DNA of 18,433 nt from a virus: UHGV virus genome UHGV-0086921; one strand, 5' to 3'. The notes under the pieces are model-generated. The model was given only the letters and a program-made list of their open reading frames with translations. It did not search any database and had not been told where the DNA came from. How positions within the stretch are numbered: the first letter of the stretch is position 1; every line of letters begins with the position of its first letter. This document shows positions 2,979 through 17,942 of this stretch, one piece after another. The translations under genes and the position numbers were made by a program.

Positions 2979-4604
2979 TCACGCTCCGGCCAGTTTGGCC
3001 CAATTATCAAGAGAGGAATCCATCGGCGCGTAGTTAATCATCACGGCGTCAGCGAGGTTCGGCGACTTGGTGCCGTCAGGCTGTTTATCAACAACGATTT
3101 TCCCCACACCGTTAATGGAATAGGTCGGTTGCGACAGCTCGATGATGAGTTTGTCTTTGCTCGCCATGGCGCTGCTGATTGAGATAATTTCGTCCGGGTT
3201 GTAGGCCATTCCCTCAACCACGGCGCGATAGGTGTTCTGGAAAAGCTTGCGTAATTGCCACCAGCTCTGGGCCTTGGCGTTAGCAAAGAAGTCCTTGTTC
3301 AGGCGGGCGGCCTGTCCGTTGTCGCCGCGCACCGCTTCATCGTCCGGATCAAATACCGCGCCGCTACCACGAAACGGTGTGGCGAGTATTGACGGTCGGC
3401 GCGCTGCGTTACGCAGTTCGTTGATGGCGCGCGCATCGCCGCGAACGCCAGCACCCAGGCCGTCCTCGTCGAAGCGAAACTCTTCGAGGTTGTCCTGTTC
3501 GCAAAAGCCGAAGACCTTCTCAACAGACTGGTAAATGTCGCTGCCAACGCCGGACCATTCACGCACGTTCTCCAGAAGGAAGCCGTGACGGGTCGAAAAG
3601 GCGTTTTTGTCCCGGCCTTCGTCGGCGACGTCCATCGCGCCCAGTCGCTTGCCCGTTGGCTGAATACCAAGTTTGATATGCGCGTCGACGGCAGCCTGTA
3701 CCCAATCGGACGGGATCAGGACGCCTTCCGCAGATGCGCTGTAGTTCAGGTCAAGTTCCTGCGCCACCACCACCGGATTGTCGATTTTCTCGCACTCCCT
3801 GCGATACCACTCTTCATCCTTGCGCGGGTCATCTCGCCAGTGGAACGTGAATACTGGTATTTTTCCGCCGTGGCGCTTCTGCGCGAACGGGTTCGCCATG
3901 CCATTAACCGAGCTCAGGTCAATACGGCAACGGGTGGTTTGCGACAGCGCCGCATCAATCAACAGAGGACGCTGGAGGAATGCAGCTTCATCCACCAGGT
4001 AGAGCGTGGTACGGTCACCACGTCCGATATTGTCGCCAGCCTCGCCTTTGATAACCGCGCCAGTATCTGGAAACTCAACGCGCATATAAGGCGCATGCTT
4101 CTTCTCGTCCCACGAGCCACGAAACTCGATGGGCAGTGTTTCCACGAACTTTCGCGCCTTCCAGAACAGCGCCTTCGGGTCACCGGTGCTGTCGACGTAT
4201 TCCTCTTTACGGGAGCCGAAACCGATAACCATTTCTTTGTTGAAGAGGCAGAGCGAACAGGCCAGCCCGATCGCCGTCCAGCTGAGCCCCATTTCGCGGC
4301 TCTTTTCGGTGATGCCGTTCTCCAGTCGTTCGCGCCGCTCCATGATCCAGTGAATCCACTCTTCCTGTTTCGGGAACAGCAGAAAAGGGATGGTGACCGG
4401 CAGGCCATAATCGATGTTACGCGGGTCAGTAGTCATACCCCAGTCGATGATGAACTGTGCCGGGTTGGTGCGGTAAAACTGCTTTAGCGCTGGCAGCATT
4501 TCAGGGTTCTGGCGAATGCGCTGTAAGCGCTCCATCCGCCATTCAAAAACCATCTGGTAATCAGGGTTTCTGAAATCGAATTCAAACGGGAGAGGCATGA
4601 TCAC
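2979..4604 (-). CDS. Terminase large subunit
   Basis: 541 aa ORF between the small terminase and portal genes. It starts with GTG and overlaps the TerS stop by 4 nt (GTGA), indicating translational coupling. Size and position are typical of TerL (ATPase plus nuclease). Confidence 0.8.
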
Positions 4605-12520: not shown

Positions 12521-13957
12521 TCAGAATCCCCCTTTCTTCTTGGACTGCGGTTCCTTGCGTTCACGGCGGCGAATTTCAGCAGACTGTTGGTCTGTGTCAT
12601 AAATAGCGCCATTTGCCTGAATGCAATACACCGTACCGGTATTGCCATGACGATTGAGACGAAGGATTAGTTCGGTTTCACCAGGTGGAACACTGTCATC
12701 AAAAGCGCCTTCACGATGGATCCCAACCCAATAATCGCAATCCTGTTCAATCTGCCCTGTATCTCGTGAGTCACTTGGTAATGGGCGTTTATTGGTTCGG
12801 CTTTCCAGTGCGCGGTTAAGCTGCGTCAGAAGCACAACAACGCAATCAAGCTCTTTGGCAAGGTTCTTCAGTCCTTTGGTGATCATGCCGTAAGCAAGGT
12901 CGTTGCGATCGGCCTTCTCAGCGGTCATTAGTGTCAGGTAATCGACCAGAATCATGCCAACACATCCTTTTTCTCGCTTGATTCGACGGCTTTCGCTGAC
13001 GATTTGAGCCAGAGATAATCCCGGCGTGTCGTCGATGTAAAGCATGTCGATTTCACTCAAGCGATTAGCTGTTTCGATCGCCCTGTTGAAGGCACCATCG
13101 TAATCACCCTGATAGCCGTCATCAGCGTCATTTGTCGCCGGAAGGTAAAAAATATTCGGGTTAACACCAGACTTCTGCCCTACCAGTTTTTCCAGTATCT
13201 GATCACCTGGCATTTCAAGGCTGAACATCAAAGCGGGCTTTTTCTCATGCACTGCGCAATTGATTGCCATCTGGCTGTATAGCGTCGTTTTCCCCATCTT
13301 AGGGCGAGCGCCAATGACAAACAGAGAGCCTTTCACCAGACCTTTCGGTGACAGCATCCTGTCCAGCGATGGGATCCCTGTGCTCATTCCCCGTTGTTCG
13401 CCTGATGGGTCAAATCGCTTCTCAAGGTCGCTAACCCAGTCTTCCATGACCTCACCAAATGAACGAAGGCCGCGACGCGATCCGGTTTTTGCATGGTCTG
13501 TCAGTTGCGTGAAAATCGCCTGAATAGCTTCGTACTTCTGCGTTGCAGTCATTCCGTTGCGGGAATAGAGCAATTCCGTCGCTTCAGTCATGCGGTTGAT
13601 GGCGTAGCGTTCCATTGCGGTTTCACGAACCTGCATTGCATAGGCAACGATGTTTGCTGCGCTTGGCGTGTTCTTTGCGATCTCAGCGATATAAGCAAAA
13701 CCGCCAACAGACGCCGTTAACGATTTACGCTCCAGTTCATCGAAAAGCGTCAGGCCATCTACTGGCTTTTGCTCCCGGTGCATTCTGGTTATTTCTTCGA
13801 AAAGGATTTTGTGTGGTCGGCCGTAAAATGAATCAGGCTTCAGCATCGCCAGAACTTTCCGGACGCGCTCACTGCTGTCATCATCCAGAAGCAATCCACC
13901 AATCACCGCCTGCTCTGCCTCGATGCTATGGGGCGGCGCATAAAAATTATCGGTCAT
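12521..13957 (-). CDS. Replicative DNA helicase, DnaB family (P22 gp12-type)
   Basis: About 478 aa with Walker A GARPKMGKT, Walker B MILVDYL, and the DnaB-like N-terminal domain (IEAEQAVIGGLLLD). Preferred start MTDNFYAPP; overlaps the upstream gene stop. Confidence 0.9.
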   Translation of the reverse strand: MTDNFYAPPHSIEAEQAVIGGLLLDDDSSERVRKVLAMLKPDSFYGRPHKILFEEITRMHREQKPVDGLTLFDELERKSLTASVGGFAYIAEIAKNTPSAANIVAYAMQVRETAMERYAINRMTEATELLYSRNGMTATQKYEAIQAIFTQLTDHAKTGSRRGLRSFGEVMEDWVSDLEKRFDPSGEQRGMSTGIPSLDRMLSPKGLVKGSLFVIGARPKMGKTTLYSQMAINCAVHEKKPALMFSLEMPGDQILEKLVGQKSGVNPNIFYLPATNDADDGYQGDYDGAFNRAIETANRLSEIDMLYIDDTPGLSLAQIVSESRRIKREKGCVGMILVDYLTLMTAEKADRNDLAYGMITKGLKNLAKELDCVVVLLTQLNRALESRTNKRPLPSDSRDTGQIEQDCDYWVGIHREGAFDDSVPPGETELILRLNRHGNTGTVYCIQANGAIYDTDQQSAEIRRRERKEPQSKKKGGF

Positions 13958-14846
13958 CGTGTTCACCCTCACGAACTTTCAGGTAGGTATTATCGTTAAG
14001 CAGGAAATCAAATCCCTTTTTGTGCCAGACGGTTCCGCGCTGATGGTTTGGGCGCTCTTCGAACATCCATCGGCAATTTTCGCCTACGTAGCTCAAATAA
14101 TTTCTCCAGTCCTGCATCGTGAAACCATGCCCGTCAAGCTGTCGGGTTATCACTCCGGCTTTGCGCCAGAACGTTCGGATCTGGTTTTTACGCTTGTCAT
14201 TCAGTGCGCGGATTCTTGGCGCTTCAGGAAGGATTTCGTGGTAAGCATCGACAACATCCTGACAGCTGACGGAAGGTTTTTTCTTGTCAGACTTTTTGTC
14301 TGCTGTGGCACTCTCTAATACGTCAGTATTAGAGATAATATTATTATATTCTTTATCTGTGGTAATTTGCTGGTAATCTGCTGGTACAGTATTGCTTGCA
14401 GGCATTGGTATTGCTGGCTTTGAGGTGGTAATTTGCTGGTAATCTGCTGGTACAAAATTTGACTGATAATCGTCATATTTCTCTACCGAGAAAACTGAGA
14501 ATTTACCGTGTGAAACCCAGTCAATCATGCCGAGTTTTTTGAACTTTCTAAGCAGGTACTGAACGCGATCTGGTTTGAGTCCTGTTTCAAACGCCAGAGT
14601 ATTTCTACCGCCAAGTAGCTTCCCTCTGCCTACCAGAATTTCTCCTGCGTCAGTCATTACATACTCAGGCGTATGCTTTGCTTTGAGGATTAAGTGAACC
14701 CACAGATGCGCAGTTTCTGCGTCCTTGTAAAACGGCACATCCATAATTTTACGGTGCAGCAAGGCATACCCCTTACCGCTGCTTTGATGCGGTTGTTGTA
14801 GCCTTCTGGCCTCTCTGGCTTCGGCTAGATTAGATATGTTACTCAT
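13947..14846 (-). CDS. Replication initiation protein (O-like / P22 gp18-like), with origin iterons inside the gene
   Basis: 299 aa ORF directly upstream of the helicase gene. It contains tandem peptide repeats ([10 protein letters not shown] x2) encoded by DNA direct repeats, the hallmark of lambdoid initiators whose ori lies within the gene. Confidence 0.75.
14355..14455. repeat. Origin-of-replication iteron array inside the initiator gene
   Basis: Two roughly 30 bp direct repeats GTGGTAATTTGCTGGTAATCTGCTGGTACA (about 14358-14389 and 14423-14454) built from CTGGTAAT-type sub-repeats, flanked by an AT-rich stretch around 14320-14360. Confidence 0.55.
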
Positions 14847-14985
14847 GACCTTTCTCCTTCTGCATCAGCTTCACTTTTTCCAACTCAGCCCGGAATCGAC
14901 CAGGCTGCTTGAAGCTGGACAGGAAGCGATCACGTAGTATGTGTTTGTGAATTTTGTCCTGGTAAGGACTGAGTTGTTTTGTCAT
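14839..14985 (-). CDS. Small hypothetical protein (48 aa) between cII and the initiator gene
   Basis: Hand translation: [48 protein letters not shown], with an AGGAG RBS 5 nt upstream. Its stop overlaps the initiator start. No recognised family. Confidence 0.35.
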
Positions 14986-14989
14986 AATG

Positions 14990-15062
14990 ACTCCTGTTGA
15001 TAGATCCAGTCTTTCTACATCAGGCCTCGAAGAATTCGCCGTTCTTCGGGGCTTTTTCTTTT
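14990..15062 (+). ncRNA. oop-like antisense RNA (terminator well supported; promoter tentative)
   Basis: Plus-strand intrinsic terminator at about 15024-15062: 11 bp stem GCCTCGAAGAA / TTCTTCGGGGC followed by TTTTTCTTTT, antisense to and overlapping the cII 3' end, exactly as lambda oop does. Candidate -10 CATAAT at about 14983-14988. Confidence 0.45.
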
Positions 15063-15298
15063 GTCAGCATTCTGGCTACTTTCTTAGCCAGTTCCGCCAA
15101 CTCCTCGTCTTCAACACCCCATTCAAGAACAGCCAGAAGCATTCCCATTTTTGGGATGAAGCTGTCTTTCCATCGCGAAATTTGCGATTCATTAATCCCT
15201 AACGCGTCGGCAACCTTTCGCTGACCACGTACAGCAATTCGATTCAGGATGTTGCTTGTAATTGCATTCGCTTTCTTGCGAGTACTTGTAAGTTGCAT
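15020..15298 (-). CDS. cII: Transcriptional activator CII
   Basis: 92 aa from [62 protein letters not shown]..., with the lambda CII signature ([25 protein letters not shown]). The translation-initiation region AAGGAAATACTTACAT-ATG is lambda-like. Confidence 0.85.
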
Positions 15299-15356
15299 AT
15301 GTAAGTATTTCCTTAACAAATAAGAAGTTATGCGCATCAAATTATGCGCGTTGTAT

Positions 15357-15400
15357 TCCCGCATTTCGGCGGGAATGAGGACCATGACTGTTAAAGAGCG
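15357..15400 (-). promoter_or_regulatory. nutR (boxA + boxB) N-utilisation site
   Basis: On the minus transcript, boxA CGCTCTTTAACAG is followed by the boxB hairpin UCCCGC-CGAAAU-GCGGGA, immediately downstream of cro. An identical boxB is present in nutL. Confidence 0.6.
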
Positions 15401-15408
15401 GGTACTGC

Positions 15409-15627
15409 TTAGGCGGCTTTGTTACTGGATGGAGGGAAAACATCATCCAAAGAACATTGGCACCCTAACTTCCTGAGGCCTTCTACGATCATTCGGCAAT
15501 CGTTAAGGCCAGGAGTACGGATATTCAGCTCATAGTTGGCGATGCGGGATTGCCCCCAACCAATTGCTGAAGCTAGTACAGCTTGCGAAACTCCGATTTT
15601 TTTTCGCTGCTGGGCAATTTTGTTCAT
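15409..15627 (-). CDS. cro: Cro-like HTH repressor (434/P22-type Cro)
   Basis: 72 aa from MNKIAQQRKKIGVSQAVLASAIGWGQSRIANYELN... (HTH_XRE-like), with a GGGAGA RBS. It is the first gene transcribed from the pR-like promoter, divergent from cI. Confidence 0.8.
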   Translation of the reverse strand: MNKIAQQRKKIGVSQAVLASAIGWGQSRIANYELNIRTPGLNDCRMIVEGLRKLGCQCSLDDVFPPSSNKAA

Positions 15628-15639
15628 TGCGGTCTCCCT

Positions 15640-15735
15640 AGCATTAATCACACACCCATTACACACAATTTGTGATTAACAGTCAACCTCAATTCGTGTA
15701 CAGAGTTCAATCACGTTGCGTGTTACATTTAAGGG
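15640..15735. promoter_or_regulatory. Right operator/promoter region (OR with pR and pRM)
   Basis: Divergent cI/cro intergenic region. Minus-strand pR reads TTGACT (about 15681-15686), 17 bp spacer, TGTAAT (about 15658-15663). Repeated AATCACA/TGTGATT operator half-sites (TTAATCACA at about 15644; TGTGATTAA at about 15671; AATCACG at about 15709). Possible pRM -10 TACATT ending at the cI ATG, implying a leaderless cI mRNA. Confidence 0.6.
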
Positions 15736-16383
15736 ATGAAAACGATGCATGAAATTATCGGGGAAAGGATCAAGTCCCTTAGAGAAGCTAAAGGACTTAG
15801 CCAGGCTCAATTGGCCAAGCTTTGCGGCTGGGCTGCGCCTTCACGCCTGGGGAACTACGAGTTAGGAACAAGAAAGGTTAGCGCGGATGACGCGCTGGTT
15901 CTTGGGGCGGCACTCGGCGTATCTCCGGCAAAAATAATGTTTGGCGAGGATTCAGACGCCGTATTTCGCCAATATGAATACCCGTTATTTTCTTCAGTGC
16001 AGGCCGGGCCATTTTCGGAGGTGGGAAGCTACACAGCCAGCGATGCAAAGGCATGGGTCCCAACGACCACAAAAGCCAGCGAAAAAGCTTTCTGGCTTGA
16101 GGTGAAGGGGCATTCAATGACGGCGCCTCAGGGGGTTCGTCCAAGTTTTCCGGAAGGCATGCTGATACTCGTTGATCCGGCTGAGCCGGTAGAGTCTGGG
16201 GATTTCTGCGTGGCTTCTGCAAATGGTGATTCAGAGGCAACGTTCAAGAAGTATGAGAAGGATGCAGGGGTTAGTTACCTGGTACCTTTAAACCCGGCAT
16301 ATAGAACACTGGATTGCGACCATAGCTGCCGCATCATAGGCAAGGTAGTTAAGGCGCAGTGGCCTGAAGAGACGTTTGGCTGA
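15736..16383 (+). CDS. cI: CI prophage repressor (LexA-like S24 autopeptidase family)
   Basis: 215 aa with an N-terminal HTH ([12 protein letters not shown]...) and C-terminal S24 features (VKGHSMTAP... Ser nucleophile, and a later Lys in IGKVVK). An in-frame alternative start at 15745 has an AAGGG RBS. Confidence 0.9.
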
Positions 16384-16533
16384 TCGGCAAGGTGTTCTGG
16401 TCGGCGCATAGCTGGTGAAAAAATTATTTAATGCGGTGTATTGGCTGATTGTAACCCCATGTAACATCTTGCCGTCACCATTTCGGTGGTTAGATTTTTA
16501 ATAAAAAAAAACAAATGTATAGCAAGGTTTTTT

Positions 16534-17013
16534 ATGGATAAAATTAATTACCCACCCCTGTTTGAGCCAGGGTTCCATGACATGGATGAAGCTGGATTAA
16601 AATCGTATTGTGTCGATTGCTTTCCTTCATCATCCAGGCGAGGCATGCTATACTGTAATTTTATACAGCTACTCGAATCTATTCGAGAATTATCTGCTCA
16701 ATATGGCTGTTTTACAGAAATATGGGTTGATGGTTCATACACCACGTCTAAACCAGAGCCTGATGATATTGATATTTTGTTGGTATGTGACTATAGCAAT
16801 ATAAACTCAATACCTGTCATGCTTCGGGGCCGCGTCGATAATTTGCTTGACCGAAACTACATCAAACAAAACTACAAAATTGATGTCCTACTACTCATGA
16901 AGAATTTAGATGACCCTAACTATGATTATGAGTACTGGCGTAGCTACTGGCGCGGTTGGTTTGGTTTTGATCGCAGTGAAAACCCGAAAGGGTTAGTGAG
17001 GATTTTTTTATGA
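16534..17013 (+). CDS. Predicted minimal nucleotidyltransferase-fold protein (Pol-beta superfamily-like), cargo gene A
   Basis: 159 aa from MDKINYPPLF... (the track ORF starts at an upstream GTG in an A/T run, less likely). Motif EIWVDGSYTTSKPEPDDIDILLV fits the NTase GS-x(9-13)-DxD signature. AAGG RBS; AT-rich codon usage unlike the surrounding phage genes. Confidence 0.55.
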   Translation: MDKINYPPLFEPGFHDMDEAGLKSYCVDCFPSSSRRGMLYCNFIQLLESIRELSAQYGCFTEIWVDGSYTTSKPEPDDIDILLVCDYSNINSIPVMLRGRVDNLLDRNYIKQNYKIDVLLLMKNLDDPNYDYEYWRSYWRGWFGFDRSENPKGLVRIFL

Positions 17014-17942
17014 ATGATAAATCAATGTTTAAAAATTGCGATAAACGCATTGATTTCATTCAAAAAGAAGTCGATGCAATGAAGCAAAACAAAACCAGGT
17101 CCTTTGCTGACATGCTTCTTTATCGCTCCATGGATTCTCATCTGAGCGATTTGAAGGCCGAAAAATTAAAGCAAGATAGTCGGCACCCACTTATCGATTT
17201 TTTTGAGCTGCGGCTGAAAGGCTCTGAGGTTGACTTTGGCTCTATTCCTTTAGAGCTGCTTGGGGCTATTTCAACAAATCTTGCAGCGCTAATACAAAGA
17301 GCAACACACAAAATTGCCTCAGGCAAGGACTCAAAAAAAGTTCCCTACGACGTGAAAAGCTCCTTAAACCTCAGGCTGGCTGATTTATCCCCTGGGTCTA
17401 CAAAATTGGGCGTCACCTTCTCTACAGGAATAGCAGAATTAGTAGAAACAGTACCCAGCAAGGCTGTAAAAGGCATATTCGATTTGTTGTTAAGCGATGA
17501 CGACAACAACTTCATGAATCACGTCGCTGAAATTGGATACAATTCCACTGTAAGCCTTAAGAGAATCGTAGAGGAATGCGATAAACACAACTTAACATTT
17601 GATGCAAGTTGGACCGGTCCATTTAGTAATGGCACCAAGGTGGCAACTATTGACTCCAATAAAATTAAGTACTTGGTGAGTAGACTTACATCAACCATTT
17701 CATCCCCTCCCATTACTGAAACGGTTACAGGCGAACTGGTCGTTCTATCCAAATATGGGAAGCTGGAGCTTGATGTTGGTGGTGAACATTTAAAGGCTTC
17801 CTATCCGATTGAAATGCTAGATTTAATACAAAAAAAACACAAGGTCGGACAGATTGTTTCTCTTTTAGTGGAGACTACTGAGATTCACAATGATCGCATA
17901 GGTCTGTACCGTAAAAACCATCTTGTTAAATCGGTTCTTTAA
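17010..17942 (+). CDS. Hypothetical protein (310 aa), cargo gene B, translationally coupled to gene A
   Basis: Its start overlaps the gene A stop (ATGA at 17010-17013). No transmembrane segments are apparent and I recognise no family. AT-rich. Followed by a strong terminator. Confidence 0.6.
   Translation: MNDKSMFKNCDKRIDFIQKEVDAMKQNKTRSFADMLLYRSMDSHLSDLKAEKLKQDSRHPLIDFFELRLKGSEVDFGSIPLELLGAISTNLAALIQRATHKIASGKDSKKVPYDVKSSLNLRLADLSPGSTKLGVTFSTGIAELVETVPSKAVKGIFDLLLSDDDNNFMNHVAEIGYNSTVSLKRIVEECDKHNLTFDASWTGPFSNGTKVATIDSNKIKYLVSRLTSTISSPPITETVTGELVVLSKYGKLELDVGGEHLKASYPIEMLDLIQKKHKVGQIVSLLVETTEIHNDRIGLYRKNHLVKSVL

Follow-up and report, generated by a model that had tools for sequence, protein, structure and literature searches.

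A 48-codon open reading frame (ORF) lying between cII and the replication initiator gene of the virus genome UHGV-0086921 (a stretch of 18,433 nucleotides, hereafter the window) is a known, catalogued lambdoid gene (P22 orf48 / HK620 hkaW / DUF2740) and not a new one. When phages carrying this gene or one of its positional counterparts were compared, such small ORFs were found at the head of replication modules that encode a helicase and not of modules that encode a loader for the helicase of the host; this association is the one new point of the present analysis. The explanation that we favour on balance is that the ORF is a genuine gene that opens the replication module, is coupled to the initiator and acts as an accessory of helicase-carrying modules.

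The predicted product matched the Pfam profile PF10872 (DUF2740) with 99.4 bits (E = 8.9e-29) over positions 1-43 of the 43 in the profile, the gathering threshold of which is 27 bits, and also matched phrog_1913 (E = 2.7e-28); its membership in DUF2740 is practically certain. A tblastn search found the protein in 127 phage records. It was 100% identical in HK620 (hkaW), HK022 (orf48), VT2-Sakai (H0097) and other Stx2 phages, 85% identical at the amino acid (aa) level in P22 (orf48) and 58% identical in Erwinia phage Midgardsormr38. The P22, HK620, HK022 and VT2-Sakai copies (85-100% aa identity) are thus the same gene, and their length, their position between cII/oop and the initiator and their 8-nt overlap with the latter are all as in the window; HK022 orf48 goes by gp53 in the HK620 record, where hkaW is labelled 'similar to HK022 gp53'. 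The DNA of the region was 97-99% identical to HK620, HK630 and several enterohaemorrhagic Escherichia coli (EHEC) phages. The preliminary description had called the ORF unannotated, which holds for the raw window only, as elsewhere the gene bears the names hkaW, orf48 and H0097 and the RefSeq label 'DUF2740 family protein'. The novelty that this implied was mistaken, since both the small ORF and its absence from lambda are already in the literature, together with the general layout cII-oop-orf-O-P (Hayes et al., PMC3349717). The literature searched (DUF2740, hkaW, P22 orf48) contained no study of the function of the protein.

DUF2740 members are stand-alone proteins of ~46-48 aa from enterobacterial lambdoid phages and prophages, a description that the 48-aa window copy fits. 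The RefSeq 'DUF2740 family protein' was present in 400 of 5426 complete E. coli genomes, and among 1.84 billion representative proteins an exhaustive profile search returned 14 DUF2740 members. All named sources were Enterobacterales except one 386-bp 'Xanthomonas pisi' contig, which looks like contamination; E. coli-type copies of the ORF with 94-100% identity were seen in this source (L006) as well as in Shimwellia pseudoproteus (L004) and Candidatus Erwinia dacicola (L005), all of them assemblies from taxa that are unrelated or distant. In one further record (L014; ON886116.1, Salmonella phage PSP2-22, UNVERIFIED_ORG, positions 3001-3408), the DUF2740 ORF was fused in frame to a DUF4752 ORF and had T7-like genes (DNA ligase, RNA polymerase) as well as lambdoid cIII and kil as neighbours; this is most likely a chimeric assembly.

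Several lines of evidence argue that the ORF encodes a protein. Reading frame and selection were tested on eight homologues, in which as many as 47 of the 126 nucleotides compared deviated from the window copy. Across these, the annotated frame was the sole frame free of stops, and its ratio of nonsynonymous to synonymous changes (pN/pS) was 0.35, compared to 1.0-1.3 in other frames; the codon-aligned antisense frame reached 0.45, but with stops. Within codons 12-41, which are clear of the oop promoter (pO) and of the initiator start, pN/pS was 0.28 vs 1.0-2.1 in the other frames. Synonymous changes have thus piled up while the protein was kept, and the frame was open in homologues at 58-67% identity. 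A plus-strand ORF of 33 aa at 14836-14937 was rejected because the reverse frames contained stops in the homologues. Frame and protein were retained from E. coli and Salmonella phages to the Erwinia phage, so that the preliminary description was well founded in holding the ORF to be plausibly translated, and loss of the frame in homologous regions, the observation that it had named as refuting this, was not what we found. Deep subfamilies retained a basic N-terminus, the motif HKN..R..F, a turn, and a helix ending in K.KE.G.E. The protein is strongly basic (isoelectric point 10.1), and an AlphaFold2 model predicted a two-helix hairpin (residues 7-25 and 28-44) with a mean predicted local distance difference test (pLDDT) score of 82. 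Foldseek searches with this model gave no PDB matches and nothing significant in BFVD (all E >= 1.5), no PDB sequence scored below E = 0.4 in a profile search, and Pfam held no match besides DUF2740. Judged from these sequence comparisons, the ORF very probably encodes a translated, functional protein, and because the central codons are under purifying selection, the peptide itself appears to matter, and not only as a coupling device.

The phages that share the cII gene of the window were of two kinds. In the first, a small ORF was followed by the initiator and a helicase (HK620, and also Sf6, mEpX2 and HK97, the latter three with an ORF of the unrelated gp53 family); in the second, there was no small ORF, and the gene after the initiator encoded lambda P (HK140) or a DnaC-like ATPase (N7). 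This pattern was then examined in two samples, with partners classified from six reference proteins. Using the motif of the linker at which the ORF starts, 120 viral contigs were fetched, 78 of which had enough downstream DNA. All helicase-type modules in this linker-anchored sample (47/47) started with a small ORF (DUF2740 or gp53), and each of the two families occurred with all three classes of initiator plus helicase, whereas all loader-type modules (29/29, two of them with a truncated O and lambda P) started with O itself. At two loci no partner was detected; a small ORF was present at one of these, and the other began directly with O. The second sample was anchored on the Phage_rep_O N-domain of the initiator, which occurs with both partner types, and comprised 79 new diverse contigs (80 rows, one of which was already in the collection). 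Among its 44 helicase loci, 36 had a DUF2740-like ORF, three a member of a third family (…EDGFTFIPNKFLDDLL…) and one a gp53-like ORF; the other four had another small overlapping ORF (three loci) or a ParB-like gene upstream instead (L303). None of the 26 loader-type loci had an ORF of any of the three families. Overall, a small ORF headed 90 of the 92 sampled loci at which the partner was a phage helicase (47/48 and 43/44), and no recognised small-ORF family preceded any of the 55 loader-type modules (lambda-P or DnaC-like) of both samples.

Two sets of apparent exceptions were rejected. In the second sample, nine helicase loci seemed to lack a small ORF; eight of these had a DUF2740-like ORF that an upstream in-frame ATG had hidden from the length filter, and the other was L303. 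Conversely, seven loader loci seemed to have a small ORF, none of which matched the three families; they look spurious or part of a larger upstream gene. The association also held when approached from either gene, as an overlapping ORF of 46-55 aa was found in 76 of 80 loci in a scan with the initiator type of the window (class A), and a helicase followed the initiator in 85 of the 87 DUF2740 loci with enough sequence, the two exceptions being one truncated prophage and one probable chimeric assembly. The origin-binding domain of a second initiator type (class B) was 48% identical to that of lambda O and 45% identical to that of P22 gp18; it is therefore about as close to lambda O as it is to P22 gp18, which indicates that the small ORF tracks the partner and not the origin-binding domain.

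The ORF was highly conserved in a mosaic setting. Of 96 collected loci, 84 encoded the identical protein, and at most compared loci the ORF was at least 90% identical in DNA whether the flanks (cII, initiator) were related to those of the window or not; all four combinations of flanks occurred, a flank being called unrelated below 70% ungapped identity. DUF2740 preceded three classes of module, namely the 299-aa initiator with a DnaB-like helicase (class A; window, HK620), a 286-aa initiator with a lambda-O-like N-domain and a 626-aa Toprim-helicase (class B; SEN22), and P22 gp18 with gp12 (class C). The HK97 gp53 / Sf6 gene 42 family (phrog_1331) was found with the same three module types. 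Its members (52-54 aa, isoelectric point 10.7) start on the same linker ATG (ATGACAAAAC...) and overlap the initiator start, although by 14 nt instead of 8, and hhalign found no homology between the two families (probability 1.6%). The gp53 family is thus a positional analogue of DUF2740, and probably a functional one. The same protein occurs with three module classes and can be replaced by non-homologous proteins, which makes it unlikely to be a lock-and-key partner of one initiator.

Other occupants of this slot were also observed. The third family is acidic (59-62 aa, ...EDGFTFIPNKFLDDLLKEDF...) and overlaps helicase-paired initiators in L352, L353, L374 and L377. At L302 (IMGVR_UViG_3300014642_000010), the slot held a 59-aa ORF that overlaps the initiator start and that we take to resemble the N-terminal zinc-binding domain of ClpX; lambda O is a ClpXP substrate, and this ORF may be a sign that the slot has other uses. 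At four loci with a DnaC-like partner (L338, L342, L344 and L345), a predicted ORF of 74-124 aa (MNHEQFIEKHVREELIKQGF..., with a Ser/Cys-rich tail) overlapped the initiator start by 8 nt (ATGGGTAA) and matched none of the small-ORF families.

At its 5' end the ORF begins within a conserved lambdoid linker. Identity between module types ended at ORF nucleotide +8 or +9 when the window was compared to HK140, N7, HK97, Sf6, mEpX2 and P22, and megablast matches of phages sharing only the cII module ended at window positions 14975-14976; the Sf6 annotation calls this stretch boundary sequence bsq5. At the start of O in lambda, HK140 and N7, the linker, the ribosome binding site, the first eight nucleotides (ATGACAAA) and the oop/pO arrangement are identical to those of the small ORF (our alignment; PMC3349717). 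Because linker identity runs to +8/+9 and then diverges, the ribosome binding site and ATG of the small ORF are, as read from these alignments, those of O in lambda-type phages. Lambda-type modules thus lack the small ORF: their linker ATG opens the initiator, which is paired with a loader (lambda P or DnaC-like) and not with a helicase. The preliminary description was correct in giving the ORF 48 aa, an AGGAG ribosome binding site and a stop that overlaps the initiator start, and in noting a long cII-O interval (~170 bp): cII stop (15020-15022) and initiator ATG were 173 nt apart, an interval accounted for by the small ORF, while the gap was 34 nt in HK140, which is lambda-type and has the same cII as the window.

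The linker also carries elements on the opposite strand. The putative pO, which was placed by homology only (the pO annotated in P22 and the description in PMC3349717) and was not called by a simple consensus promoter scan, overlaps codons 1-9 of the small ORF. The predicted oop-like RNA overlaps the 3' end of cII, had a predicted fold of -23.6 kcal/mol (z = -3.5) and runs to a strong terminator that was called by a terminator scan; P22 annotates an oop promoter and terminator at equivalent positions, and an Rfam scan of 13800-16500 (E <= 1) returned no family, oop included. Window positions 14954-14964 read TACCAGGA on the minus strand (Tyr-Gln), and an equivalent stretch was present in HK97, Sf6 and mEpX2, such that ATGACAAAAC and TACCAGGA are common to DUF2740 and gp53 ORFs, two unrelated families, at equal distance from the start. 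On the opposite strand TACCAGGA reads TGGTAA or TGGTAT. A distance of 17 bp separates this stretch from the pO -10 CATAAT, and it is probably the pO -35, which would place codons 1-9 under dual constraint. The YQ(D/E)K common to DUF2740 and gp53 was considered as a sign of homology and rejected, as both families have the DNA TACCAGGA at the pO -35, which accounts for it better.

At its 3' end the ORF runs into the initiator gene. The small ORF and the initiator gene, read in different frames, overlap by the 8 nt ATGAGTAA, which hold the stop of the former and the start of the latter. At every intact locus, that of the Erwinia phage included, the neighbours of the gene were cII/oop on one side and an O-like initiator on the other. 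Every intact homologue ended in ...GGTCATGAGTAA or a close variant with the initiator starting at that ATG or GTG, and in all homologues GGAG or GAGG stood 7 nt before the initiator start, inside codons 42-45. The overlap was kept in all intact loci in one of three geometries (ATGA, ATGAGTAA/GTGAGTAA, or 14 nt in the gp53 family); the ATGA form, with the small-ORF stop in a different frame, was that of distant subfamilies. This arrangement, a stop/start overlap with the downstream Shine-Dalgarno sequence inside the upstream ORF, is that of coupled overlapping cistrons in phage and bacterial operons (e.g. the ATGA type); it differs from that class in being known here from sequence and in that the upstream peptide is itself under selection. 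Coupling by overlap is likely on this anatomy, and we consider it moderately probable that the small ORF is translationally coupled to the initiator. The earlier suggestion of a coupling ORF accordingly fits the anatomy, and falls short in that selection on the central codons points to more than coupling.

A conserved mRNA helix was considered as proof of coupling and proved weakly supported after controls with slid partners and shuffled codons. In an RNAalifold prediction from nine diverged sequences, CGUGAUC..UUCCU (codons 18-22) paired with the initiator AGGAG..GGUCAUG, the initiator Shine-Dalgarno sequence pairing with UUCCU at 14921-14925. The helix was kept in 9/9 sequences, with 94% of cells paired compared to 36-55% with a slid partner, and three pairs had changed on both sides; five of the 11 pairs were invariant, as coding constrains both arms. 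The observed pairing exceeded that of all 40 shuffles in the Erwinia copy only.

Taken together, the following sequence of events is proposed. The small ORF would head the replication module as its first cistron; rightward transcription from pR would reach it after cII, and it would be translated from the strong ribosome binding site and ATG in the conserved oop/pO linker. Its last codons hold the Shine-Dalgarno sequence and start of the initiator, such that ribosomes finishing the small ORF would terminate on top of the initiator start, coupling the two translations. The product, a basic 48-residue predicted two-helix hairpin, would serve as an accessory factor of helicase-carrying modules, either because it assists in loading the phage helicase at the origin or in recruiting it there, or because it neutralises the host DnaB/DnaC pathway. 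We infer an accessory role because the small ORFs go with a helicase partner and the three families never with a host-DnaB loader; the feature common to their modules is that they bring a helicase without a loader. A helicase-related accessory function is nevertheless a tentative assignment, and a more speculative extension, which we hold to be rather unlikely, is that DUF2740, HK97-gp53 and the third family are interchangeable, near-obligate small subunits of initiator-plus-own-helicase modules that supply a loading or adaptor step or shut off DnaB/DnaC. The small protein ORF104 of Staphylococcus phage 77 reportedly blocks the host helicase loader DnaI, and this phage is said to bring its own loader. 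ORF104, a ~50-aa early protein of a phage with its own fork-loading machinery, would be an analogy for the version in which the host pathway is neutralised, although host, module type and gene position differ and the DUF2740 protein had no sequence or fold match in the PDB.

Several observations weigh against the proposal. The protein had no sequence or fold likeness to a known helicase loader or loader inhibitor in Pfam, PDB or BFVD, and its occurrence in identical form ahead of three initiator/helicase classes speaks against a tight specific fit with any of them. The association comes from few independent lineages, with ~6 helicase-type vs 3 loader-type combinations in one bacterial order. 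Stop/start overlaps are common in phage operons, such that the overlap alone is weak evidence for coupling, and the pairing probability of the initiator start (0.65-0.68) was close to that of codon-shuffled controls (0.58-0.61 +/- 0.08).

Among the alternatives, an unlikely one is that the ORF is a purely cis-acting leader with a functionless peptide, for which only being translated counts, in that this would bring ribosomes to the start of the initiator, set the dosage of initiator or buffer it against OOP/RNase III events at the linker. That three non-homologous families use one slot with the same overlap logic suggests that position counts over sequence, and the initiator Shine-Dalgarno sequence and AUG are embedded in the ORF and covered by the conserved long-range helix; set against this are the pN/pS of codons 12-41, outside pO and the initiator start region, the recurrence of the identical protein in most collected loci and of near-identical DNA whatever the flanks, the motifs kept across deep subfamilies, the confident hairpin model, and an occlusion of the start region that was not clearly above shuffled controls. 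A cis-acting leader also leaves the absence of such an ORF from loader-type modules unexplained. Slightly less probable again is a trans-acting small protein with a role outside replication, such as a lysis/lysogeny regulator or a host-takeover or anti-defence factor, that happens to be encoded in the early right operon; the preliminary description had offered a small regulator as one option. Roles of this kind are frequent among small, basic and rapidly evolving early proteins of phages, and the presence of the same protein with different replication and cII modules is as expected for a protein that does not contact them, but strict positional linkage and initiator overlap over deep divergence argue otherwise, as does the lack of any recognised family ahead of the 55 loader-type modules despite the same linker, cII and host range.

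We regard it as improbable that the region is a DNA-level homology island ('boundary' or linker) that promotes exchange of replication modules and in which the open frame is incidental. Its high DNA identity at most compared loci, with related or unrelated flanks in all four combinations, and the annotated boundary sequence at the 5' end of the ORF are what such an island would show; however, synonymous changes accumulated while the protein was kept, the frame stayed open at 58-67% identity, and distant subfamilies preserved protein motifs and not DNA. A chance ORF with no gene, for which only the shortness of 48 codons speaks, has a negligible likelihood given the Pfam match, the selection and the wide annotation, and is refuted by the conservation of the frame. 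The reading of the ORF as the first cistron of the replication module, coupled to the initiator and accessory to a phage helicase, is retained as the best overall explanation.

Feature coordinates are collected in the table. The order of genes on the minus strand was cro-like, cII, small ORF, O-like initiator and DnaB-like helicase. Directly after cI, in the slot of lambda rexAB / HK620 hkaS, lay a two-gene cassette at 16486-17013 (+) and 17010-17942 (+), encoding a 175-aa protein that is Pfam DUF6932 and matched PADLOC PDC-M63A (E = 2e-41) and a 310-aa protein that matched PDC-M63B (E = 7.5e-45); on these profile matches, the cassette is a candidate prophage-encoded anti-phage defence system.

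Table. Positions of the small ORF and of surrounding features in the window (SD, Shine-Dalgarno sequence).
Feature	Position	Strand	Remarks
Small ORF	14839..14985	minus	48 aa, span including stop; DUF2740 member (practically certain)
Small ORF ATG	14983-14985	minus	
Small ORF stop TAA	14839-14841	minus	
SD AGGAG of small ORF	14991..14995	minus	5-nt spacer to ATG
Initiator ATG	14844-14846	minus	
SD AAGGAG of initiator	14854..14859	minus	within small-ORF codons 42-45; 7 nt to initiator ATG
3' arm of predicted mRNA helix, GGUCAUG at initiator start	14844..14850	minus	partner CGUGAUC 14928-14934
Conserved lambdoid linker CTGGATCnATCnACAGGAGTnATTATGACAAA	14976..15003		oop 5' end, pO -10, ribosome binding site, first codons
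Putative oop promoter pO	14960..14988	plus	-35 TGGTAA 14960-14965; TG 14980-14981; -10 CATAAT 14983-14988
oop-like antisense RNA	14996..15064	plus	starts GTTGATAGATCCAG; terminator hairpin 15022-15054, then T run
Replication initiator, O-like, class A	13947..14846	minus	299 aa; phrog_345 E = 6e-87; HK620 O annotation
Origin iterons inside initiator gene	14359-14393 and 14425-14459		repeats; HK620 rep_origin annotation
Phage-encoded DnaB-like replicative helicase, initiator partner	12521..13957	minus	Pfam DnaB_C E = 9e-60; DnaB N-terminal domain E = 1e-30
cII transcriptional activator	15020..15301	minus	93 aa; Pfam Phage_CII E = 1.9e-42
cro-like gene	15409-15666	minus	
Repressor cI	15736-16383	plus	

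The position of the gene also bears on its current annotation. In PHROGs, phrog_1913 is labelled 'tail protein', and the label has spread to RefSeq (NC_002371, P22 orf48; NC_002730, HK620 hkaW; NC_070949; and others). A role as a tail protein was rejected, as the gene was invariably situated within the early right operon, with cII and the replication initiator as its neighbours; because of the small size of the protein and its fixed place in the replication module the label is not credible, and it is best treated as an annotation error that is propagating in both databases. By itself the ORF is ordinary, and the helicase-module pattern is a modest, testable lead. Helicase loading of the P22 type, without a dedicated loader, is poorly understood, and a conserved 48-residue product encoded at the head of the module offers a testable candidate; if the proposed role is true, a minimal (~50-aa) helicase-loading or replisome-takeover factor would have been overlooked in P22 for 40 years.

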